Below the pieces are notes generated by a model. The model was not told the DNA's origin, did not search any database, and worked only from the letters and a program-made list of their open reading frames with translations. From contig CAZFWC010000001.1 of assembly GCA_964522515.1 (NCBI GenBank), forward strand, positions 14,536-78,535: a stretch of 64,000 bases of DNA. Direction: 5' to 3'. This document shows positions 12,937-53,538 of this stretch, in pieces (position 1 is the first letter of the stretch; every line of letters begins with the position of its first letter). This DNA is from an uncultured Gammaproteobacteria bacterium (lineage in GTDB: Bacteria; Patescibacteriota; Patescibacteriia; UBA2196). The position numbers and the translations under genes were made by a program.

Positions 12937-13105
12937 TCCGCCTTCGCCCCTAATCCCGAGTACTCGGGACTACTGGACTATGGCGGATAAATTTCTAGTT
13001 CAGTTTTAAATTTTTTTTAATTTAAAAAAATTTAAAACTGCATTAAGAGCCTGCCCGCCGTAGCTAGGATTTTTTAGAGTTGAGGCGAAGGAGGGTTAGG
13101 CGAAT
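12937..13105. repeat. GC-rich composite palindromic element (with CCCGAGTACTCGGG sub-hairpin) filling the GT4 / radical-SAM intergenic gap
   Basis: same modules as 30..203; ends at the stop codon of 13106..14233. Confidence 0.85.
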
Positions 13106-26846: not shown

Positions 26847-26953
26847 TTTCAGTTCTCCTTAGTTAATAAATTGTGAAATATTTTTTATATTTATTATTTA
26901 TTTCGTCACCACTACTCACAAAAATGAGTAGCAGGTGAAAAAATAAACACTAG

Positions 26954-27008
26954 AGCCTGTCCGCCGTAGTCCAGTAGTGTTTGTTAAGGGCGAAGGCGGG
27001 TTAGGCGA
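26954..27008. repeat. GC-rich element, short copy abutting stop of 27009..28472
   Basis: CTGTCCGCCGTAGTCCAGTAG...GGCGAAGGCGGGTTAGGCGA. Confidence 0.8.
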
Positions 27009-33960: not shown

Positions 33961-34096
33961 CTCCGCCTTCGCTTCTAAAAAATCCTACTGGACTACGGCG
34001 GATAAACTCTTGTGTTTAAAATTTAAAAAACATAGGAGCCTGTCCGCCGTAGCTAGAGTTTTTTTAGGATTGAAGGCGGAGGAGGATTAGGCGCAA
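33961..34096. repeat. GC-rich composite element between rplR and rpsE
   Basis: shared modules; right end at rplR stop, left end 9 nt from rpsE start. Confidence 0.85.
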
Positions 34097-38452: not shown

Positions 38453-38598
38453 ATCCGCCTTCGCCCCTAATCCCGAGTACTCGGGACTACTGGACTACGG
38501 CGGATACCTGTCTGCCGACAGGCAGGAACTCTTGTGTTAAAAAAGCACAGGAGCTTGCCCGCCGTAGCTAGGACTTTTAGGGTTGAAGCGAAGGAGGG
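38453..38598. repeat. GC-rich composite element between rpsC and rplP
   Basis: shared modules incl. CCCGAGTACTCGGG sub-hairpin. Confidence 0.85.
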
Positions 38599-41853: not shown

Positions 41854-42618
41854 TTATTTATTTTTTAAATATATTTTTTCAATTATTTCTAAACTTTTTT
41901 CAATAATTAATATTTTCTCAAACTTCAAAAGATCCAAAACATTTAAACTGTCTGCTGTTGTGATTTTAATTCCTTGCAAATTTTTTCCTGCGCTAAATAT
42001 TTTTCTGTCTGCTTTTTCTAAAATAATTAATAATGATAATTTGTAATTTTTAATGTCAAAATTGCGCTTTCCCTCCTTCGCTCCCTGAGTGTCCTTTATC
42101 ACTTCGGCGGGCAAGCTTTTAGTTTTTTTTGTTTTCTTTTCAATCTCTTTAATATTTATTATACTTTTTAAATTTTTCAAAATTTCAACAAATTCTTTTG
42201 TTTTACCTTCAGCTAAATTTAATTTGTCTAATAAAATAAATAAATTATTGTTTACTTTATCAGACAAACACATAAATAATGCTTTTGTTTTTTGTTTTTT
42301 ATTAACTTTTTTAGAAAAGTTTCTGTCTTTTGTGGGTCCAAAAGTCACACCGCCCCCAACCCAAATTGGTGAACGACTTGAACCGTGTCTTGCGCGTCCA
42401 GTTCCTTTTTGTTTCCAAGGTTTTTTCCCACCACCGCGAACTTCACTTTTATCTTTTGTGTGAGCAATCGCAACTCTTGAATTTGCCATTTGCGCAACTG
42501 CGACTTGATGTACAACAGAATTTTTTATTTCAATTCCAAAAATTTTAGAATTTAATTCTAGTTCTTTTACTTTTTCTCCAAGTTGGTTGTAGATTTGTAT
42601 TTTTTTCATGTTAGTCAT
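41854..42618 (-). CDS. rplD: 50S ribosomal protein L4 (C-terminally extended, with in-frame element insertion)
   Basis: L4 core blocks; operon position. Confidence 0.85.
   Translation of the reverse strand: MTNMKKIQIYNQLGEKVKELELNSKIFGIEIKNSVVHQVAVAQMANSRVAIAHTKDKSEVRGGGKKPWKQKGTGRARHGSSRSPIWVGGGVTFGPTKDRNFSKKVNKKQKTKALFMCLSDKVNNNLFILLDKLNLAEGKTKEFVEILKNLKSIINIKEIEKKTKKTKSLPAEVIKDTQGAKEGKRNFDIKNYKLSLLIILEKADRKIFSAGKNLQGIKITTADSLNVLDLLKFEKILIIEKSLEIIEKIYLKNK
42070..42116. repeat. intragenic in-frame GC-rich element (rplD)
   Basis: CCTCCTTCGCTCCCTGAGTG...CTTCGGCGGGCAAG. Confidence 0.75.
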
Positions 42619-42710
42619 CCTGATCCCGAGTGCTCGGGAGAAGGATCTGTTTTTTTAATTATTTATTTTATTAATTTTTGGCTAATTTTAGCTAATAATA
42701 CGAATGGGCT

Positions 42711-42739
42711 TGACATTTTTTTAAAAATTTATTAAAATT
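42711..42739 (+). promoter_or_regulatory. sigma70-like promoter TTGACA-17-TAAAAT for opposite-strand small ORF
   Basis: canonical hexamers and spacing; GGAGG SD 8 nt upstream of ATG at 42787. Confidence 0.5.
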
Positions 42740-42786
42740 TATATAAAATAATTTACAATTTAATTAACTAAAATGGAGGCAAAAAA

Positions 42787-43002
42787 ATGGAATTAAAAGT
42801 TCGGGCAATAAAGCCTGATGATTTTAAAGAATTTAAAGAAATTTTTTCCGACAAAAAAGCAGATTACGATAATTGTTTGTTTTGTAATGAGAAAGCTACT
42901 AAAGTTACAGAATCTGCTGATAAAACTATTCAAATTCGTAGTTGCGACGAAAAAAAATGTCTAAAAATAGCTTTAAATTTTGTTTCAAAATATTCAATCT
43001 AA
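42787..43002 (+). CDS. small Cys-rich (CxxC...C..C) hypothetical protein inserted antisense between rplC and rplD
   Basis: strong SD, promoter and downstream terminator; 4 Cys in zinc-ribbon-like spacing. Confidence 0.4.
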   Translation: MELKVRAIKPDDFKEFKEIFSDKKADYDNCLFCNEKATKVTESADKTIQIRSCDEKKCLKIALNFVSKYSI

Positions 43003-43043
43003 AAATTAATAAACTGTTTCTCTTACTCATTTCATTATTCTGC

Positions 43044-43084
43044 CGAGCAGGATTTGAAATGAGTTTTTTATTTTGAAAAAATTT
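43044..43084 (+). terminator. Rho-independent terminator (10-bp stem ACTCATTTCA/TGAAATGAGT + T-run)
   Basis: perfect 10-bp inverted repeat followed by TTTTTATTTT. Confidence 0.6.
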
Positions 43085-43131
43085 ATTTTAAAAAAAATTT
43101 ATATCTTATATCTTATATTTTATATTCTATA

Positions 43132-44472: not shown

Positions 44473-44886
44473 TTAAATTGTTGCTAATTCTTGTTTTAAA
44501 AAATCTAAAGTTTGTGTTTGTTTTTTAGTTTGCTTTCCAGGAATTTTTTTAATAGCTTCTATTATTAATAAAATAACTTCTTTTAATTTATTTCTGTCTT
44601 TAATAACTCCACTTTCTATTAATTCCTGTAGTTTATTTAATTTTTTGTCAAGATAATCTTTTGTCACAATTTCGCCACTTAAACCAGCTGAAAAGTTGTT
44701 AAATTCTTCTTTAAAAGTATCCTTGGTCACTGTTACTTCTTTTAAGTCTTCTATTTTTTTATCCATTCTTTTTTCTAAACTTTCTAAATCATCTTTAGTT
44801 GCTAAAACAGGAAACAAAACTTCTTCAGCAAATTGTCCCAAAATTTCTAAAGTTAATGGTTTTTGTAATTCTTTTTTGTTTGACAT
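44473..44886 (-). CDS. hypothetical helical/coiled-coil protein between tuf and rpsJ
   Basis: intact 137-aa ORF in a normally gene-free junction; no family recognised. Confidence 0.45.
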   Translation of the reverse strand: MSNKKELQKPLTLEILGQFAEEVLFPVLATKDDLESLEKRMDKKIEDLKEVTVTKDTFKEEFNNFSAGLSGEIVTKDYLDKKLNKLQELIESGVIKDRNKLKEVILLIIEAIKKIPGKQTKKQTQTLDFLKQELATI

Positions 44887-44996: not shown

Positions 44997-46199
44997 TTAT
45001 TTTATAATTTTAGTAACAACACCAGCGCCAACAGTGTGACCGCCTTCACGAATCGCAAATTTAAGTTTTTCTTCCAAAGCAATTGGTTGAATTAATTTAA
45101 CTTTTAAATTAACAGTGTCGCCCGGCATTACCATTTCTGTTCCTTCTGGCAATTCAATATCACCGGTTACATCAGTTGTTCTAATATAAAATTGCGGTTT
45201 GTATCCTTTCATAAAAGGAGTGTGTCGTCCGCCTTCTTCTTTTGTTAAAATATAAATTTCAGCTTCAAATTCAGTGTGTGGAGTAATTGATCCTGGTTTT
45301 GCTAAAACTTGTCCGCGTAAAATATCTTCTTTTTTAGTTCCACGAAGTAAAATTCCAGCGTTGTCACCAGCTCTGCCTTCATCAAGTGACTTGTTAAACA
45401 TTTCAATTCCAGTTACAACAGTTTTTGCTGTGTCTTTTAAACCAACAATTTCAATTTCATCATTTAATTTAACAATTCCTCTTTCAATTCTACCAGTTGA
45501 AACAGTTCCACGACCTTCAATTGAGAAAACATCTTCAACAGGCATTAAGAAAGGTTTTTCAGTGTCTCGTTTTGGTTCTGGAATGTAAGAATCAAGTTTG
45601 TCCATTAATTCCAAAATTGATTTGTAATTTTCATCATCTTTGTTTCCAGCTTGAGCTGCTTCTAAAGCTTTAAGAGCAGATCCTTTAATAAATGGGATTT
45701 CGTCACCTGGAAATTCATATTTTTTTAAAAGATCTTTGATTTCTTCTTCAACTAAATCAATTAATTCAGGATCATCAACTTGATCTGTTTTGTTTAAATA
45801 AACAACAATTGAAGGAACACCAACTTGGCGAGCAAGTAAAATGTGTTCACGAGTTTGAGGCATTGGACCGTCAGCAGCAGACACAACTAAAATTGCACCA
45901 TCCATTTGAGCAGCGCCGGTAATCATATTTTTAATGTAATCTGCGTGACCTGGACAATCAATGTGAGCGTAGTGTCGTTTGTCAGTTTCGTATTCAACAT
46001 GAGCTGTGTTAATTGTAATTCCACGAGCTTTTTCTTCAGGCGCGTTGTCGATTTCATTTAGACTTTTATTTTGCGCAGTTTTACCTTCAGCATTAAGAAC
46101 TGCAAGGATTGCCGCAGTTAAAGTTGTTTTACCGTGATCAACATGACCAATTGTGCCAATGTTAACATGCGGTTTTGTTCGTTCGAATTTTTCAGCCAT
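44997..46199 (-). CDS. tuf: elongation factor Tu
   Basis: [22 protein letters not shown]-motifs; full-length EF-Tu. Confidence 0.97.
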
Positions 46200-46400
46200 T
46201 TTATTTATGATTTGCTAACAACCTTTCCCTAAAGGGAAAGTTTTCTCCAGTTGTTAGAGTTAATTTTTTTATTAATTAAATTTTAACAGATGCTAAAAAT
46301 AATGTCAAACAACAAACCCAAAGTTCAAAGTTAAAAGCTCAAAAAAATATCAAATACTAAATATTAAATTTTTAAATAAAATTTTTTCTAAAAGAACAAG

Positions 46401-46458
46401 GAGCCTGTCCGCCGTAGCTAGAGTTTTTTAGGATTGGGGGCGTAGGCGGATTAGGCGA
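46401..46458. repeat. GC-rich element short copy abutting stop of acidic protein gene
   Basis: GAGCCTGTCCGCCGTAGC...TTTTTTAGGATTGGGGGCGTAGGCGGATTAGGCGA. Confidence 0.8.
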
Positions 46459-47094
46459 TTAATAAACTGCTTCTTCCTCAAATTCATTTTCTATTTCTTC
46501 ATCATTATTTTCATCAATATCTTTTTCATCAAACGAAACATCAATAATTGGTTTTTCTTCTGTTCTAAAAAAATCTGAGGCTGTTACATCTGGTGGAGGT
46601 GGAATATCTTCGTATTTAATTGGTTCTGTTTCAGAATTGTCTTTTAAATTATCAAATTTTAAATCATTGTTTTTTATTTCATCTGCGTCCAAATCATATT
46701 TAGGTGCAGTAAAATCCTCTTCCTCTTCCTCATCTTCATTTTCATTTTCGTAATCATCTTCTTCCCAATTATTATTTTTAAAATCTTTTTTTTCATCTTC
46801 ATCTTCCCAAGGTCTGTAATCTAATTCAGGTTTATCAAATTCAGATTTAAATGGATCTTCAATTTCTAATTCGTCTTCTTGTTCTGGATGTTCTTGTTTC
46901 CAAATTGAAATATCACGATCAATTTGGTTTAACATTTCTTTTTCGTTTAAATTTTTAATATTGTCCGCATTTTCAATAATTTTTTCATAATCTGAAAAAG
47001 GCATTAAAACTAAATTTGTATTATTGTTTTCATCCACAATAATAATTTTGTCATTTGTTTTTTTAACTAAGTTGATGATTTTGTCTAGGTTCAT
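46459..47094 (-). CDS. highly acidic hypothetical protein (Asp/Glu-rich C-terminal two thirds)
   Basis: composition; no domain recognised; adjacent to TA pair and RM-like gene. Confidence 0.45.
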   Translation of the reverse strand: MNLDKIINLVKKTNDKIIIVDENNNTNLVLMPFSDYEKIIENADNIKNLNEKEMLNQIDRDISIWKQEHPEQEDELEIEDPFKSEFDKPELDYRPWEDEDEKKDFKNNNWEEDDYENENEDEEEEEDFTAPKYDLDADEIKNNDLKFDNLKDNSETEPIKYEDIPPPPDVTASDFFRTEEKPIIDVSFDEKDIDENNDEEIENEFEEEAVY

Positions 47095-47111
47095 AAAATT
47101 ATTTTATTATT

Positions 47112-47378
47112 TTAAAAATTTCGAATTTTTCTTAAAAGATCGTGTGGACCGACTTTTACTAAAAAACAAATATTATTAATAACTTTAAAAATAAATCTGT
47201 AATTTCTGGTTACTCTGCCTTCCCAGGTATTAACAAGACCTTTTATTTTTTTAATTTGCAAAGATGGATGTCTGAAATTAACAGTAAATAAAGCCAATTG
47301 TTTTTTAGTCTGAATTTTAATTTCATTAGGTAATTTTAAAAAATCTTTATCAAAACTTTTTGTGGTTTTAATTTCCAT
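47112..47378 (-). CDS. RelE/ParE-superfamily type II toxin candidate
   Basis: 88 aa; ...NYRFIFKVINNICFLVKVGPHD resembles the RelE/ParE C-terminal signature; overlaps upstream partner by 11 nt. Confidence 0.55.
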   Translation of the reverse strand: MEIKTTKSFDKDFLKLPNEIKIQTKKQLALFTVNFRHPSLQIKKIKGLVNTWEGRVTRNYRFIFKVINNICFLVKVGPHDLLRKIRNF

Positions 47379-47835
47379 ATTTTAAAGAATCTAAATAATT
47401 GATTAATTCATCAGCACTTTTATAAGATTGCGAAACTCTGCCTACTTTTATATCTCTTTCTGATTCTCGCATTCCTGTTTGCCATTCTTCTGTCCAAAAA
47501 TATTTTTGATCAGAATCAATTAATCCAGATTTACTAGCTGTTTCAATTTCTTCATTATTTAAACTTTTTGAATTTAAAATATTGTTATTAATAGTTTTAA
47601 TTTTATTTTTAGCTAATTTTAATACTCTTTGTTCCTGATCATTTAGTTTTAATCCTGTTTTTTTTAAAAGTGATAATTTGAATTTAGCTAATTTATTCAT
47701 TAATTTTTCTATTTCTTTAACTGTTTCCATTTCTATTGAAGTTTGAGAAGTTTGAATTGTGGTTGATTGTAAAGACATATTTTTTTTAATTTTATTTCCT
47801 GTGTTTATTTTATAAAAATATAAAAAATCTGTCAA
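47368..47835 (-). CDS. putative cognate antitoxin (start likely internal)
   Basis: upstream overlapping partner of toxin-like ORF; no confident family. Confidence 0.35.
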   Translation of the reverse strand: MTDFLYFYKINTGNKIKKNMSLQSTTIQTSQTSIEMETVKEIEKLMNKLAKFKLSLLKKTGLKLNDQEQRVLKLAKNKIKTINNNILNSKSLNNEEIETASKSGLIDSDQKYFWTEEWQTGMRESERDIKVGRVSQSYKSADELINYLDSLKYGN

Positions 47836-47978
47836 ATGCTTTATTCAACTAAGAACTAACAAATAAAATTTAACAAAATTTTATCTAACATTAGCCGTTT
47901 TAAAAAAGTCAAGTGCTAATAAAAAATAAATTAAATAATTAAAAAGGCTTTTTGATATTTTGCTTTTTATTTAGTTGA

Positions 47979-49490
47979 GTGTATAATAAAAATGAGGTGA
48001 TAATAATTAAAAATAAAATTATGGAAAACAGAACACTTTATTTTGGCGACAATTTAGAAATTTTAAAAGAAAAAATTCCTGATGAAGTTTTTGATTTGAT
48101 TTATCTTGATCCGCCTTTTAATTCCAATCGCAACTACAATGTCATTTTTAAAGAAGGACTGATGGATAGCGAAGCGCAAATTCAAGCATTTGAAGATTCT
48201 TGGCATTGGACACCAGAAACTAAAAAAACATTTGATTATTTGGTAAGAAAAACCAATGATGGAATTTCAAATTTAATGCAGGCTTTGGAAAAAATGATTG
48301 GCAATAATGATATGCTGGCGTATTTAACAATGATGACAGTGCGATTGATTGAATTGCATCGAGTTTTAAAAAAAACCGGCAGTTTATATTTACACTGCGA
48401 CCCAACAGCAAGTCATTATTTAAAACTCGTTTTGGATGTGATTTTTGGAAAAGATAAATTTAGAAATGAGATAGTGTGGTGGTATCACGATCCTTCTGGT
48501 ACAACTTTAAATAAGTTTAAAAGGAAGCATGATATAATATTCTTTTATACCAAATCCGATGATTATATTTTTAATGCAGATGCAGTTAGGACTCCTTATA
48601 CAGAAAGCACTTTAAAGCAAGGTGAAAGAGGGACAATTTCTTTTGGAAGACCAACCAAAACTCATCCTCTAGGGAGAGTATGTGAAGATGTTTGGGAAAT
48701 ACCAATAATTAATTCTATGTCTAAAGAACGGCTTGGCTATCCTACCCAAAAACCAGAAATGCTTTTGGAAAGAGTTATCAGGGCATCATCAAAAGAAGGT
48801 GATTTAATTTTAGATCCATTTTGTGGTTGTGGCACAACTGTTTCTGTGGCAGAAAGATTAGACAGAAAGTGGGTTGGTATTGATATTACAATGTTAGCTA
48901 TAAATCTTATTAAGAAAAGAATGAGAGAGCAGTTTGAAGATAAAAATATAAAAATAAATATTGATGGTTTGCCAAAAGATTTATCTGGTGCATTGGCTTT
49001 GGCAAAAAAGGATAGATTTGAATTTGAATATTGGGCATTAAGTTTAATTGATGCAATGCCAGCAAAAAGTAAAAGCAAAGAAAATATGCGAGGCGCTGAC
49101 AAAGGTATTGACGGCACACTAGCACCAATTACCGGCGTTAAAAATGGCAATATGCAATATGGCAGAATTTTAATTCAAGTAAAAAGTGGTGGTGTAAAAC
49201 GAAATGATATTGCCACACTCAAAGGAGATATTGAAAGAGAAAAAGCAATTGGTGGTGTTTTTGTCACTTTAGAAAAACCAAGTAAGCCAATGTTGGAAGA
49301 GGCAGTTTTATCCGGAGAATATACTGTTGAATTTTTTAAAGGTGAATTTCCTAAAGTACAAATTTTAACCATAGAAGAATTGTTGCACGGGAAAAAATTA
49401 AATTTGCCATTATGGTCAAAAGAATATCATAAAAAAGCAAAAAAAGTTGAAATTGAAAAAAATAAATTTCAGGTGGGATTGGGGGTGTAG
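47979..49490 (+). CDS. beta-class N6A/N4C DNA methyltransferase fused to C-terminal Mrr-like (PD-D/ExK) restriction-endonuclease domain; likely true start near 48021 (MENRTLYFGDNLEIL)
   Basis: motif IV DPPF (IYLDPPFNSN) before motif I (DPFCGCGTT); C-terminal DKGIDG...ILIQVK resembles Mrr catalytic core. Confidence 0.8.
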   Translation: MYNKNEVIIIKNKIMENRTLYFGDNLEILKEKIPDEVFDLIYLDPPFNSNRNYNVIFKEGLMDSEAQIQAFEDSWHWTPETKKTFDYLVRKTNDGISNLMQALEKMIGNNDMLAYLTMMTVRLIELHRVLKKTGSLYLHCDPTASHYLKLVLDVIFGKDKFRNEIVWWYHDPSGTTLNKFKRKHDIIFFYTKSDDYIFNADAVRTPYTESTLKQGERGTISFGRPTKTHPLGRVCEDVWEIPIINSMSKERLGYPTQKPEMLLERVIRASSKEGDLILDPFCGCGTTVSVAERLDRKWVGIDITMLAINLIKKRMREQFEDKNIKINIDGLPKDLSGALALAKKDRFEFEYWALSLIDAMPAKSKSKENMRGADKGIDGTLAPITGVKNGNMQYGRILIQVKSGGVKRNDIATLKGDIEREKAIGGVFVTLEKPSKPMLEEAVLSGEYTVEFFKGEFPKVQILTIEELLHGKKLNLPLWSKEYHKKAKKVEIEKNKFQVGLGV

Positions 49491-49508
49491 TAATTGTGGA
49501 TAACTCAA

Positions 49509-49537
49509 CTTGACAAATTTTTTTAAAAAATTTATAA
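49509..49537 (+). promoter_or_regulatory. sigma70-like promoter TTGACA-17-TATAAT immediately downstream of MTase stop
   Basis: canonical hexamers and spacing. Confidence 0.4.
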
Positions 49538-49548
49538 TTATGTTGAAA

Positions 49549-49590
49549 CCTATGCTCGTCTTCATTTTTAATTTGAGCATGGGTTTTTAA
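49549..49590 (+). terminator. hairpin + T-tract (terminator/attenuator-like)
   Basis: CCTATGCTC...GAGCATGGG + TTTTT. Confidence 0.45.
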
Positions 49591-49768
49591 ATTAAAAAGG
49601 CGACGATGCCGTTCGCCAATTTGCAAAAAATATATGCAGGATTTTTACAGAGGAGCGGACGCATTGTAAAATGCTATTTTTCCGCTTCTTTTTAATTTGT
49701 CAAAAGTCGTTTTAAATTAATATTTATTATTATGCCTGTATTAGGATAACAATAAATAAAATAAAAAT

Positions 49769-50080
49769 ATGGCTAAAAATAAAAAGCAAGGCACAAAGAT
49801 AGCAATTACATTTCCTGATAAAATTCAGGTGGATTTAGTTCCAGCAAATGACTTAAAACTTTATGAAAGATTTCAATGGTTGATTGTTTTATTGGCGCCA
49901 ATATCAGCTAGTTTTTTTACCGCATATTTTACAGATGTCAACAAGACGGATTCTTTATTGTGGAGTGCTATAATATTTGCGATAGTTTCAATAATTTTTA
50001 TATTTTTTGCTTTTAGTCATCGTAAAAAAATATTTAACGGAAAAATATTGCGAGAAAAATCATTAGATGATTTTAATTAA
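49769..50080 (+). CDS. hypothetical small membrane protein
   Basis: two hydrophobic helices; no SD; weak. Confidence 0.25.
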   Translation: MAKNKKQGTKIAITFPDKIQVDLVPANDLKLYERFQWLIVLLAPISASFFTAYFTDVNKTDSLLWSAIIFAIVSIIFIFFAFSHRKKIFNGKILREKSLDDFN

Positions 50081-50108
50081 AAAAATAATTAATTAAATTT
50101 AAAAATAT

Positions 50109-50345
50109 ATGCAAAAAAGAAAAGCAACTAAAACTCAAATTAAAAAAGAAAGAAATCCAAAAAAAGTTAAAAAAGTAATCAAACAAAAAGGATATCCGTC
50201 TGGTAAATTGCCAAAAACTAAAGTTTTACATCATCTTAAAACTGTTGCAATTGGCGGAAAAACAACAAAGAAAAATACAAGAATTGTTTCTGTTCGAAAA
50301 CATAAAAAGATTCATAAAAATAGAAACAAAAGAGGAAAAATTTAA
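50109..50345 (+). CDS. hypothetical very basic Lys-rich small protein
   Basis: 78 aa, about 35% Lys/Arg; no SD; weak. Confidence 0.25.
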   Translation: MQKRKATKTQIKKERNPKKVKKVIKQKGYPSGKLPKTKVLHHLKTVAIGGKTTKKNTRIVSVRKHKKIHKNRNKRGKI

Positions 50346-50503
50346 TTTAAAAACCTCAGAGTTTTATTTCTGGGTTTTTTATTTTTAAAAAATTTAAAAC
50401 ATAAGTCAAATGCAATTTTTCAGTATTTGTGGTTTGAACAAAATGGCTCCACCCAAGAGGGACGGAGCCAACTCTAAAAGCCGTTCGGGATGACAGCTGT
50501 GCT

Positions 50504-52636
50504 TTATTTATTTTTTCCTTCCACAATTTCCTCTGCCACATTTTTCGGAACTTCTGCGTAGTGATGAAATTCCATTGTTGAAGTTCCACGGCCTTGAGTA
50601 ATTGAACGCAAAGTTGTAACATATCCAAACATTTGAGCCAAAGGCACTTCCCCATCAATAACTTTTAAATTCCCGCGCTCTTTCATTTCATTAATTTTCG
50701 CGCGTCTAGAACTTAAATCACCAATCACATCACCCATATATTCTTCAGGCACAAGAACTTCAATTTTCATAATTGGTTCAAGCAAAATTGAACCCGCATT
50801 TTTAGCAGCTGCTTGAAAAGCAATTGAGCCCGCCATTTTAAACGCAATTTCAGAAGAATCAACTTCGTGAAAAGATCCATCAAACACACTTGCTTTAATA
50901 TCTACCATTTGATAACCAGCAACAATTCCTCGGCTCATTGCTTCTTTAACGCCTTTTTGAATTGCTGGAATATATTCTTTTGGAATCACTCCGCCTTTAA
51001 TTGCGTCAACAAATTCAAAATTTTCTGTTTTAAGAGATTGATCTTTAGAATCTTTTTCTTTTGGTTCAATTCTAAGCCAGCAGTGTCCATATTGTCCGCG
51101 TCCACCAGATTGTTTAATATATTTTCCTTCTGCTTCAGCTATTTTTTTAATTGTTTCTTTGTAAGCAACTTGCGGTTTGCCAACATTACATTCAACTTTA
51201 AATTCTCGTTTCATTCTTTCAACTAAAACATCTAAATGCAATTCTCCCATTCCCGAAATAATTGTTTCTAAAGTTTCTTCATCGGTTTTAATTTGAAAAG
51301 TTGGATCTTCTTGCGCTAATTTATTTAAAGCCAATCCCATTTTTTCTTGATCAGTTTTTGTTTTTGGTTCAACAACAACTGAAATTACTGGCACTGGAAA
51401 AATAATTTTTTCTAACACAACAGGACTATTTTCACTACAAATTGTGTCGCCAGTTGTTGTTTGTTTTAATCCAACAGCCGCGGCAATTTCACCAGAAAAA
51501 ACTTCATCAACATCTTCTCGCGAGTTTGCGTGCATTCTTAAAATTCGTCCTAATCTTTCTTTTTTCCCAGTAGTTGTGTTTAAAATATAAGTTCCAGCTT
51601 TAATTGTTCCGGAGTAAACTCTAAAAAAAGCCAAACTGCCAACAAAAGGATCAGTTGCAATTTTAAAAGCTAAAGCAGAAAACGGTTCTTTGTCATCAGC
51701 TTTTCTAATTTCTTTTTGAGATTCCCTGTCCGCCGTAGCTTTAGCGAAGGAGGAATTTTTTGGATTAAAACCTTGAACAGACGGGACATCTAAAGGCGAA
51801 GGCAAAAAATCATTAACAGCGTCCAAAACAAACTGCACACCAATATTTTTTAAAGCAGAACCTGCTAAAACTAAATAAATATTATTTGATAAAGTTCCTT
51901 TTCTTAAACCTTTTTTAATTTCGTCAATATTTAATTCTTTTCCATTTAAAAATTTTTCTAACAAATCATCATCTTGTTCAGCGGCTTTTTCAATTAATTC
52001 TGCGCGATATTTTTCAGCCTGCTCTTTTAAATCAGCTGGGATTTCAATTTCATTAATTTCTTCGCCGTGCTCTCCTTTAAATTCAAAAGCTTTCATTTCT
52101 AAAATATGAATTACGCCTTTTAAATTTTCTTCAGCTCCAATTGGAATTGTATAAGCAATTGCGTTTGGATTTAATCTTTGTTTAATTGATTCAATACTCA
52201 TTTTAAAATCCCCGCCCATTTTATCCATTTTATTAATAAAAGCGATTCTTGGAACTTTGTATTTATCAGCTTGACGCCAAACAGTTTCTGATTGTGGCTC
52301 AACACCTTGGGCTCCGTCAAAAACCGCAACTGCTCCGTCAAGCACACGCAAACTTCTTTCAACTTCTGCTGTAAAATCAACATGACCCGGAGTGTCAATA
52401 ATGTTGTAGCAAAAATCTTTCCAAAAACAAGTTGTCGCTGCTGAAGTAATTGTAATTCCTCTTTCTTTTTCTTGTTCCATCCAATCCATTTCAGATTCAC
52501 CTGTGTGAGTCTCGCCAATTTTGTGTTTTTTTCCAGTGTAAAATAAAACACGCTCTGTAAAAGTTGTTTTACCAGCATCAATGTGGGCTATTATTCCAAT
52601 ATTTCTAGTTTTTTCTAAAGTATATTTTCTTGGCAT
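50504..52636 (-). CDS. fusA: elongation factor G (with in-frame GC-rich element insertion)
   Basis: [18 protein letters not shown]-motifs, full five-domain length. Confidence 0.95.
51724..51755. repeat. intragenic in-frame GC-rich element core (fusA)
   Basis: CTGTCCGCCGTAGCTTTAGCGAAGGAGG encodes ...AKATADRES... in an EF-G loop that is longer than in E. coli EF-G. Confidence 0.8.
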
Positions 52637-52641
52637 ATTTT

Positions 52642-53115
52642 TTACCCAAACCTTGCAAAATGCGCAAAAGCTTTATTTGCTTCAGCCATTCTGTGAGTGT
52701 CTTCGCGTTTTTTAATTGCAGGTCCTTCACCTTTTGCAGATTGCATTAATACATCAGCCAACTTTGCGCACATTGGTTTTCCTTTTATTTTTTTAGCTGC
52801 GACAATTATCCACCTGCAAGCTAAAGTAAAACGGCGCTGTTCACGAACTGGAAAAGGAATTTGATAATTCGCGCCACCAACTCTTCTTCCGCAAATTTCA
52901 ACTGTTGGTCCAACTTTTTTAATTGCTTGTTCAAAAATTTGAACACCTTCTTTTTTTGTTTTTTCTTTTATAATATCAAAAGCGCTGTAGATAATTTTTT
53001 GAGCTACAGTTTTTTTGCCTCGCTCCATAATATAATTAGTAAATTTTGCTACACTTAAATTATTATATTTTGGATCAGCAATGATTTTTCTTTTTGGCGC
53101 TTGTTTTCCTCGCAT
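52642..53115 (-). CDS. rpsG: 30S ribosomal protein S7
   Basis: conserved S7 blocks. Confidence 0.95.
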
Positions 53116-53118
53116 AAA

Positions 53119-53538
53119 TTATTTTTTCTCTTTCTTTGCTCCATATAAACTTCTTGATTGTTTTCGACTTTCAACTCCTTGCGCGTCATATCTTCCACGC
53201 ACAATGTGGTAACGCACACCTGGTAAATCTTTAACTCTTCCGCCACGAATCATCACAATTGAATGTTCTTGCAAATTATGTCCAACACCAGGAATGTAAG
53301 CCCAGACTTCGCGTCCGTTTGATAATCTAACTCGCGCAACTTTTCTTAAAGCTGAATTCGGTTTTTTAGGAGTTTTAGTTGTAACTTTAACACAAACTCC
53401 GCGTTTAAAACTAGAGCCTTTTTTTAAATCTCTTGATTTTCTTTTCATCACATTTAAAGTTGACCGTAAATCAGGTGATTTGGTTTTTTTAATTTTTGAC
53501 TTTCGTCCTTTTTTAATTAATTGATTTATTGTGGGCAT
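53119..53538 (-). CDS. rpsL: 30S ribosomal protein S12
   Basis: PTINQLI...highly conserved S12. Confidence 0.95.

Follow-up and report, generated by a model that had tools for sequence, protein, structure and literature searches.

A probable layered variable region between fusA and tuf in a Patescibacteria bacterium

We analysed a spacer of 4,304 bp that separates the elongation factor genes fusA and tuf in a stretch of DNA of 64,000 nucleotides, here called the window. The host of the window is a low-GC (28.8%) bacterium of the Patescibacteria, or candidate phyla radiation (CPR). Its EF-G is at most 68-69% identical to that of any species representative or metagenome contig among the matches listed, and the nearest EF-G carriers among them are Falkowbacteria- and Kerfeldbacteria-like metagenome-assembled genomes. 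On the minus strand the genes run in the order rpsL (53119-53538), rpsG (52642-53115), fusA, the spacer, tuf, an open reading frame (ORF) of 137 amino acids (aa), rpsJ and rplC. A sequence-only reading of the same DNA had taken the whole spacer for one accessory islet of defence and addiction genes, inserted between two genes that are normally adjacent; the genes and features that it listed there (the acidic protein, the toxin-antitoxin-like pair, the methyltransferase, the promoter, the hairpins and the two small ORFs) were all confirmed in place. The genes of the spacer and its two borders are as follows.

50504-52636, minus strand: fusA (EF-G), 710 aa, with Pfam GTP_EFTU, EFG_III, EFG_IV and EFG_C
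50109-50345, plus strand: orf78, 78 aa, isoelectric point (pI) 12.0, with an HNH-like motif HH..GG..N..H..IH (a weak call, from Pfam and PDB)
49769-50080, plus strand: orf103, 103 aa, a predicted membrane protein with two hydrophobic helices, from its translation
48021-49490, plus strand: DNA methyltransferase with a C-terminal Mrr/MspJI-like domain, 489 aa, start codon ATG 48021, from Pfam, PADLOC and motifs
47368-47778, minus strand: orf136, putative antitoxin, 136 aa, start codon ATG 47778, from C-terminal homology to partner antitoxins
47112-47378, minus strand: toxin88, RelE/ParE-superfamily toxin, 88 aa, pI 10.5, from its family profile, PHROG and Pfam ParE_like
46459-47094, minus strand: acid211, 211 aa, pI 4.05, 34.6% Asp plus Glu (D+E), orthologue of a Phd/YefM-like CPR gene upstream of tuf
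44997-46199, minus strand: tuf (EF-Tu), 400 aa, with Pfam GTP_EFTU, D2 and D3

The same gene order in the spacer was observed in the conspecific contigs L001/L103, L002, L089+L003, L090 and L104-L107 (L-numbers are our labels of the compared contigs and loci), which represent at least five independent metagenome assemblies. Because the order is identical across independent samples, the arrangement is real and fixed in the sampled population, and an assembly chimera as its source was ruled out by these multiple independent contigs. The breaks of conspecific contigs near 46363-46479 fall on a repeated element described below and not on strain heterogeneity. tRNA genes were sought in the region and none was found.

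The gap between fusA and tuf was surveyed in 105 non-conspecific loci of about 20 kb in which fusA is followed by tuf. It was shorter than 250 bp in 47 loci, 250-1000 bp in 36 and at least 1 kb in 22, the largest being 5,970 bp. All loci retrieved from Bacilli and Acidobacteria, with gaps of 35-200 nt, fell into the shortest class. A gap of at least 250 bp was present in 58/105 loci, so the expectation that the two genes normally adjoin each other fails in this clade. The cargo in the gaps of relatives was varied and mostly not related to defence, with many unknowns among it; for example, L043 carries a bona fide HNH homing endonuclease directly after fusA (L043:12176-12847), L044 carries Bro-N, NUDIX and HI0933-like flavoprotein genes, and L139 carries RecQ and an MGMT-like protein. 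Homologues of the toxin, the antitoxin, the methyltransferase fusion, orf103 or orf78 were found at the fusA locus of none of more than 100 CPR relatives.

The acidic gene next to tuf behaves differently from this cargo. Using a hidden Markov model (HMM) built from small gap ORFs, we detected acid211 homologues in 37/105 loci with E-values down to 1e-34. Every one of them lies in the fusA-tuf interval, is encoded on the same strand as tuf and stands 60-464 nt upstream of it; elsewhere in the loci compared the HMM had no match. Examples of the family in relatives are L010:12130-12438, L012:12087-12419, L018:3897-4319, L038:4447-4893 and L188:819-1292. Extra genes were present in 12 of these 37 loci; all of them lie between fusA and the Phd-like gene and never between the Phd-like gene and tuf. 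No toxin accompanies the Phd-like gene in the 37 relatives' loci, and the gene downstream of it is tuf here and in 37/37 relatives, which does not match the position of a cognate YoeB or Doc toxin. Since this tuf-linked synteny holds in 37 relatives without a toxin, acid211 is a lineage-conserved resident of the local str operon, orthologous in relatives, and not cargo; judged by this context, it is not a toxin-antitoxin component. The boundary between the fusA terminator and the acidic gene-tuf unit is a recurrent landing site, or hot spot, for unrelated genes in the clade.

Neighbour look-up of the closest acid211 relative led to L188, a sister-species contig of 1,510 bp, which we compared with the window in detail. 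The features on which this comparison turns are listed here.

50444-50470, minus strand: GC-rich intrinsic terminator of fusA, an 11-bp stem followed by TTTTGT (terminator scan)
50362-50413, minus strand: copy B of an imperfect direct repeat, a promoter-like second version of the toxin-antitoxin promoter, TTGACT-17-AAAAAT
50355-50374, plus strand: terminator of the orf103-orf78 unit, a hairpin and a T-run (terminator scan)
47838-50345, plus strand: block of 2,508 bp with the methyltransferase-nuclease gene, a structured leader, orf103 and orf78, missing from L188
47807-47835, minus strand: promoter of the toxin-antitoxin operon, TTGACA-17-TAAAAT, 11/12 (promoter scan)
47790-47839: direct repeat copy A, which contains the toxin-antitoxin promoter

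The order in L188 is the end of fusA, 102 nt, an AbrB-type antitoxin of 101 aa, a toxin of 86 aa, a Phd-like protein of 157 aa and the tuf leader. Between L188 and the window, identity is 70% for the Phd-like proteins over their first 67 residues, 49% for the toxins and 29% over 48 aa for the antitoxins. Distant homologues reach up to 55% identity to toxin88, so the toxins of the two species resemble each other no more than they resemble distant homologues, which suggests a turnover of same-family toxin-antitoxin cassettes at the fusA-tuf site. L188 is contiguous across the junction where the plus-strand block stands in the window (L188 139-178 corresponds to window 50385-50346, and 178-236 to window 47837-47779), demonstrating the absence of the block from the sister species. 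The block starts just upstream of the -35 box of the toxin-antitoxin promoter and finishes at the orf78 stop codon. A second window-only segment consists of the 118 nt after fusA (50386-50503), and in the alignment the fusA terminator sits within it; in L188 the sequence of the 50355-50374 hairpin acts as the fusA terminator instead (window 50346-50385 versus L188 178-139, 87.5% identity). The toxin-antitoxin promoter is 85% identical to the promoter and 5' untranslated region (5'UTR) of L188. A single-event insertion model drawn from the junctions fails because two indels versus L188 are required, one of 2,508 bp and one of 118 nt.

The two repeat copies flank the block in the same orientation: on the tuf side copy A adjoins the block directly, and on the fusA side 17 nt separate copy B from the end of the block. 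They are 79% identical over 52 nt (BLASTN), and their alignment score of 51 was matched or exceeded in 2/3000 random AT-rich window pairs. Copy B runs straight into the terminator hairpin and therefore drives no gene. These repeats could also be read as traces of a loss, in which the toxin-antitoxin pair and the block were ancestral to the species group and L188 lost the block secondarily, for example when the promoter-like repeats recombined. Direct repeats on either side of the block can indeed promote a deletion just as well as they can be left by an insertion, a pair of the same family occupies the same position in both species, and the composition of the cargo is host-like. However, not one of more than 100 wider relatives carries the toxin-antitoxin or block genes at the fusA-tuf site, the differences from L188 are two separate indels and not one repeat-mediated deletion, the toxins have diverged as far as from distant homologues, and homologues of the methyltransferase are demonstrably mobile. 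We regard such an ancestral state as unlikely, and the wider comparison across relatives appears to favour insertion here over deletion in the sister.

The same observations bear on the single-islet view. That all spacer genes are missing from the canonical str operon of Bacilli and Acidobacteria would fit one islet splitting an adjacent fusA-tuf pair, as would a toxin-antitoxin pair beside a methyltransferase-nuclease, a content typical of defence islands. But the acid211 orthologues of relatives stand upstream of tuf without either of these, L188 has the toxin-antitoxin pair without the methyltransferase block, and the gap is commonly 0.4-6 kb in the clade; the 70% identity of the L188 orthologue and the HMM E-values exclude that the relatives' Phd-like genes are unrelated to acid211. 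We therefore consider it very improbable that the whole 4.3 kb, acidic protein included, is one defence or addiction islet. What survives of the proposed 4.3-kb insertion is a segment of about 3.4 kb (47095-50503), missing from more than 100 CPR loci, which is accessory, contains known kinds of mobile genes and comprises at least two layers, while acid211 is native. Orthologous genes in the same order in relatives, by which the insertion was to be judged, were found for acid211.

Base composition gave no sign of a foreign origin. The accessory segment 47095-50503 has a GC content of 0.281 versus 0.288 for the window; gene by gene, the values are 0.329 for the methyltransferase, 0.234-0.236 for the toxin-antitoxin genes, 0.344 for fusA and 0.357 for tuf, against a background of 0.283 +/- 0.040 (39 genes). 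The methyltransferase gene is GC-richer than the window mean, as had been pointed out, but it is within the range of the 39 genes and below fusA and tuf. We rejected a GC or codon anomaly as evidence of transfer since per-gene GC and GC at third codon positions (GC3) are within the background range. With cargo of such host-like GC, any transfer is either old or had a similar genome as its source. Between 47750 and 50250 the GC skew reverses, which is due to the strand switch.

The evidence for a toxin-antitoxin pair comes from the families of its two members. The toxin88 family is small, with 19 homologues found by search; a profile of these homologues matched RelE3 (3bpq, 8.9e-6) and E. coli RelE (1.6e-5) in PDB, the PHROG RelE-like toxin was matched at 4.5e-8, and 15/19 homologues matched Pfam ParE_like. 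The orf136 gene lies upstream of the toxin88 gene and overlaps it by 11 nt, so the earlier description of a RelE/ParE-like toxin with an overlapping partner holds. For two homologous toxins we inspected the neighbourhood: the gene before each encodes an antitoxin of 140-150 aa with a MazE/AbrB domain (PF04014) and overlaps the toxin gene by 4 nt. Tyrosine recombinases adjoin one of these pairs, and RepA/ParA plasmid genes adjoin the other. In orf136, the C-terminal ~93 aa resemble these antitoxins (42% over 90 aa, E 2e-22, versus the partner of P0134), and in place of the AbrB DNA-binding domain the N-terminus is an unrelated segment of ~43 aa with no family match. TTG 47835 was dismissed as the start of orf136 because it belongs to the -35 box of its promoter.

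Taken together, a type II toxin-antitoxin pair with a domain-swapped antitoxin is a credible assignment for toxin88 and orf136. The toxin would have a RelE/ParE fold and presumably be a ribosome-dependent mRNA endonuclease, and orf136 would have retained the toxin-binding C-terminal region and lost the AbrB DNA-binding domain; any autoregulation must then work differently, as orf136 is without an AbrB/SpoVT DNA-binding domain. The pair may act as an addiction or abortive-infection module. Because the interval between toxin88 and acid211 is only 17 nt and contains no detected terminator, the toxin-antitoxin promoter probably transcribes acid211 too.

The acid211 protein itself consists of a Phd/YefM-like N-terminal domain and a long acidic tail. 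A word-indexed homologue search with its first 80 aa found no match; an exhaustive representative search showed that the family comprises 603 representative clusters at 50% identity. The score of acid211 against Pfam PhdYeFM is 26.5 bits, under the cutoff of 29.8, and PhdYeFM_antitox matches the N-terminal domain in 47/68 family members (E up to 0.01; best 1.7e-8). The N-terminal model has an alpha-beta-beta-alpha-alpha fold (predicted local distance difference test, pLDDT, 79-86), and its top Foldseek neighbours are the YefM chains of YefM-YoeB complexes with a probability of 0.8-0.9 and an E-value above 0.1, which is not significant. The family has a central motif 'LTE.ELLDKINRDIA.WK', the tail is acidic with a median of 33% D+E, and a C-terminal (Y/F)x(E/D)P motif was present in 73/150 members. 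To our knowledge, there is no description of this tuf-linked family of acidic Phd/YefM-like CPR genes.

YefM-fold antitoxins neutralise RelE-fold toxins in the YefM-YoeB family, and one could imagine that toxin88 pairs with the resident acid211 in this way and that orf136, toxin88 and acid211 form a three-gene module, which would explain why RelE cassettes landed beside the Phd-like gene in two species. Two diverged cassettes do sit at the same spot, the distance from the toxin stop to the Phd-like start is similarly short in both (17 nt here, 21 nt in L188), and the structural neighbours of the N-domain are YefM chains in YoeB complexes. Yet those Foldseek E-values are not significant, the Phd-like gene occurs without any toxin in 37 relatives, orf136 already has the conserved toxin-partner region, and the tail of acid211, a conserved acidic motif, does not resemble the C-termini with which YefM and Phd bind toxins. 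A three-gene module is therefore improbable in our view.

Acidic C-termini of stalk P-proteins or of SSB recruit partners. A joint reading, which we put forward as quite doubtful, is that the acid211 family is an undescribed CPR-specific member of the str operon whose conserved-motif tail ((Y/F)x(E/D)P-hydrophobic) would dock a translational GTPase or the ribosome in the manner of those proteins, that the dimeric N-domain would bind the tuf promoter, and that an expressed resident of YefM fold would repeatedly attract RelE cassettes.

Two side observations concern this gene and its position. In L189, a contig of 942 bp, a protein of 155 aa (L189:388-855) is 84% identical to acid211 over its first 57 residues and unrelated in the remainder; it is either a domain-swapped paralogue or the product of a chimeric assembly. 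In another CPR subclade the gap contains membrane-anchored ORFs of ~180-200 aa and no Phd-like gene (L015:4469-5032, L016:10544-11089 and L034:11801-12415), and these ORFs resemble one another by eye only.

The methyltransferase-nuclease gene is the main content of the plus-strand block. Its Pfam matches are N6_N4_Mtase (E 2e-52), Mrr_cat (33.3 bits, cutoff 21) and NA-iREase1 (35.4 bits, cutoff 27), which bears out the fusion of a methyltransferase with an Mrr-like domain that had been read from the translation. The methyltransferase occupies residues 1 to ~320 and the PD-(D/E)xK domain residues ~320-460; neither the N-terminal winged helix of Mrr (Mrr_N) nor an SRA-like sensor domain is present, the N-terminal 320 residues being methyltransferase. 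A start at GTG 47979 (503 aa) was rejected, as the N-termini of homologues and independent gene calls support ATG 48021; an exact look-up of the 503-aa form gave no match. The methyltransferase is of the beta class and N6-adenine type, with motif IV (DPPF) preceding motif I (FCGCGTT), and the closest solved structures are the N6-adenine enzymes M.MboIIA (1e-26), M.BceJIV and M.RsrI. In PADLOC the best matches were models for MTase_II (1.9e-63), MTase_III and orphan methyltransferases. AlphaFold modelled the full-length fusion poorly (mean pLDDT 56) because the alignment is shallow, so the C-terminal domain alone was used; the model of the C-terminal ~140 residues (pLDDT 67-90) matched the catalytic domains of MspJI and AspBHI in Foldseek, and a sequence search of this domain against PDB gave nothing significant.

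Homologues of the fusion are widespread. The best 120 homologue clusters (90% identity clustering) all have the three-Pfam architecture, are 57-77% identical and come from many candidate phyla. Homologues in CPR genomes sit at unrelated loci. Full-length collinear homologues with 42-47% identity were found in 28 phage records, beside an integrase or repressor, and on rhizobial and actinobacterial plasmids, where they are annotated simply as methyltransferases. From these unrelated loci, phages and plasmids, the gene appears to be a mobile, solitary unit. The closest homologue (76-78% identity) lies at another locus of a Falkowbacteria genome whose fusA-tuf gap (L042) holds the Phd-like gene only. 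We also observed that this Falkowbacteria homologue is followed by a SocA_Panacea-domain gene and an overlapping ORF of 161 aa (L091/L092:9663-10614), which are probably another toxin-antitoxin pair, so that the methyltransferase adjoins a toxin-antitoxin-like pair at both loci. A literature search found no paper on the fused methyltransferase-Mrr family, and no member appears to be characterised.

The fusion would methylate host DNA, and its nuclease domain may either restrict unmodified incoming DNA, as in a one-chain enzyme resembling Type IIC, or serve as a DNA-binding module. Under the second option the protein would be a solitary methyltransferase of mobile elements, the Mrr-like domain a non-catalytic DNA-binding or target-recognition module, and the block without a defence role. 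We hold this to be a serious possibility, if a somewhat less probable one than its opposite. Its full-length homologues are single genes in temperate phages and on plasmids, the residue equivalent to Q386 of the D..QxK motif is S in these, and the nuclease-like domain thus need not be catalytic; the domain also matches NA-iREase1, a Pfam family named inactive, and the CPR homologues are unusually conserved across many candidate phyla, unlike the fast-diversifying specificities of restriction-modification systems. On the other hand, D360, D364 and Q386-x-K388 are invariant in 26/26 aligned CPR homologues, as are DPPF and FCGCGTT, the fold matches the active modification-dependent nucleases MspJI and AspBHI, and the Mrr_cat score is above the curated cutoff.

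The remainder of the spacer contains the promoted leader with the two small plus-strand ORFs, and the signals upstream of tuf:

49539-49768, plus strand: structured leader, 230 nt (fold -61.8 kcal/mol, z = -5.1)
49510-49538, plus strand: sigma-70 promoter, TTGACA-17-TATAAT, 12/12 (promoter scan)
46391-46458, minus strand: host repeated element of 68 nt abutting the acid211 stop codon (BLASTN)
46280-46308, minus strand: tuf promoter, TTGACA-17-TG-TAAAAT with an extended -10 (promoter scan)
46215-46257, minus strand: tuf 5'UTR hairpin, counterpart L188:1381-1421

The leader contains terminator-like hairpins, two on the plus strand and one on the minus strand (49601-49618), and convergent promoter-like sites at 49644-49672 (plus) and 49676-49703 (minus). 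This structure suggests a small RNA or an attenuator, and the leader may be a sense/antisense small-RNA pair. An Rfam search of the leader and the remaining spacer gave no family at gathering or E-value thresholds. orf103 and orf78 are treated as coding because of gene calls, their setting between a promoter and a terminator, and the weak HNH motif. Database matches of orf103 were membrane proteins at sub-threshold scores; those of orf78 were Pfam Col-Pyo_DNase (E 0.013) and, in PDB, HNH domains only (Cas8f-HNH, E 1.5). Each of the two is a singleton in its own 90% cluster, and no relatives of either were found in phage records, PHROGs or viral contigs. orf78 is convergent with the end of fusA; its HNH-like motif, together with the HNH homing endonuclease directly after fusA in L043, hints that homing-type elements may exploit the fusA-tuf site.

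Upstream of tuf, the outer stem of the leader hairpin (CTAACAAC/GTTGTTAG) is kept in the sister species L188, and the inner stem is CTTTCCC/GGGAAAG here versus CTCCG/CGGAG in L188. Such paired changes suggest a leader structure under selection. The element that abuts the acid211 stop codon has further copies in the window at 161-203 (98%), 34025-34093 (90%), 13047-13103, 26953-27008 and 38541-38585 (BLASTN; 45-68 nt; 78-98% identity). All copies share one orientation and lie immediately next to the stop codon of a minus-strand gene, and several metagenome contigs break there; the repeat may be a species-specific terminator or a repetitive extragenic palindromic (REP)-like element.

Beyond the spacer, the ORF of 137 aa between tuf and rpsJ (44473-44886) is coiled-coil-like, belongs to no family and has no homologue in the relatives' loci; with it the ribosomal gene cluster has a second insertion specific to this species. 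The conspecific contig L004 (3331-4317), with an identical EF-Tu, departs from the window (42100-43098) right after rplC: it continues with a 23S_rRNA_IVP-family protein and another ORF on the opposite strand, and the window continues with an ORF of 71 aa (42787-43002) and rplD. This divergence reflects either a strain-level variable spacer or a chimeric contig.

We consider it probable that the fusA-tuf spacer is a layered variable region, composed of a native gene, a toxin-antitoxin layer and a methyltransferase block, at a recurrent insertion site. The native layer would consist of acid211 (46459-47094), the host-type repeat after its stop codon and then the tuf promoter and leader, the unit of Phd-like gene and tuf being conserved across a large Patescibacteria clade. 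The first addition would be the type II toxin-antitoxin cassette (47112-47778) with its own promoter. The second would be the opposite-strand block of 2.5 kb (47838-50345), inserted just upstream of the toxin-antitoxin promoter, with the one-chain methyltransferase-nuclease and a strongly promoted unit for a membrane protein and an HNH-like mini-protein. Both additions presumably arrived by horizontal transfer. Judged from its predicted promoters and terminators, the classical str operon here is divided into separate transcription units, and this division is probably what makes the site permissive; the cargo leaves the core translation cluster undisturbed because fusA is equipped with a separate terminator and tuf with a separate promoter.

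Several points weigh against this interpretation. No integrase, transposase or clean target-site duplication was found at either layer, and the 79% repeat could simply reflect two similar AT-rich promoters. The block-free state is documented by one short (1.5 kb) sister contig, which leaves a deletion in the L188 lineage as an alternative to insertion, and cargo GC and GC3 are inside the host range. As to function, PADLOC, with which the region was to be checked for defence genes, recognises methyltransferase models and no complete defence system; the phage and plasmid homologues have S in place of Q386; and toxin88's own scores are under the cutoffs (Pfam E 0.06; TIGR02385 20.4 bits versus 27.9). 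The genes are identified at the family level, and a defence or addiction role of the accessory genes is plausible from their content.

In a large Patescibacteria clade, fusA and tuf are routinely not joined in the classical way, and the gap between them is used as an insertion hot spot; a toxin-antitoxin pair and a mobile methyltransferase-nuclease gene can become fixed within the core translation cluster of a reduced genome. The parts most worth follow-up are the conserved tuf-linked Phd/YefM-like acidic protein and the widespread, uncharacterised methyltransferase-Mrr fusion family, common to CPR bacteria, temperate phages and plasmids; both families leave current concepts unchanged unless experiments show an unexpected role.

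Compared with known systems, acid211 resembles Phd/YefM antitoxins in its N-terminal domain, by the PhdYeFM matches of its family and the YefM chains as top structural neighbours, but in most genomes the family is without a cognate toxin, its domain lacks the first beta-strand, and the long acidic tail ending in (Y/F)x(E/D)P and the fixed synteny with tuf set it apart. The neighbouring cassette shares with RelE/ParE modules that have AbrB/MazE-type antitoxins a small basic toxin, an overlapping upstream antitoxin and its own promoter, and homologous pairs are on plasmids and beside integrases; it differs in that orf136 lacks the AbrB/SpoVT domain, toxin88 stays below curated cutoffs, and the cassette lies inside a translation-gene operon, where it probably reads through into the resident gene.

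The fusion agrees with M.MboIIA, M.RsrI and M.BceJIV in the motif order IV then I, in DPPF and FCGCGTT and in sequence and fold, whereas these solved enzymes have no Mrr-like domain. Marinitoga phage MPV1 gene 55 and Streptomyces phage Hippo gene 48 are collinear with it over the full length, including the C-terminal domain, and differ in the nuclease motif (S in the phage and plasmid methyltransferases, Q here). Type IIG enzymes such as MmeI and Eco57I have an N-terminal nuclease, a gamma-class methyltransferase and a target-recognition domain. Like these Type IIC/IIG enzymes, the fusion is a solitary gene that combines a PD-(D/E)xK-type domain and an adenine methyltransferase in one chain; unlike them, its methyltransferase is beta-class, its nuclease domain is C-terminal and Mrr/MspJI-like, and PADLOC matches it to methyltransferase-only models. 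With the Type IV endonucleases Mrr and MspJI it shares an Mrr_cat score above cutoff, the D..QxK signature and the catalytic fold of MspJI and AspBHI, but not the N-terminal winged helix or SRA-like sensor domain. As methylation-dependent cleavage by a nuclease fused to a methyltransferase would be self-destructive, its logic must differ from that of Type IV enzymes.

At the level of the locus, multigene insertions between concatenated translation operons were described in Gammaproteobacteria at operon boundaries (Brandis, Cao and Hughes 2019, PMC6735719). The present case is similar in that accessory genes lie between conserved translation units and the flanking order is kept, but here the site is inside the classical str operon, which is already split in this lineage.

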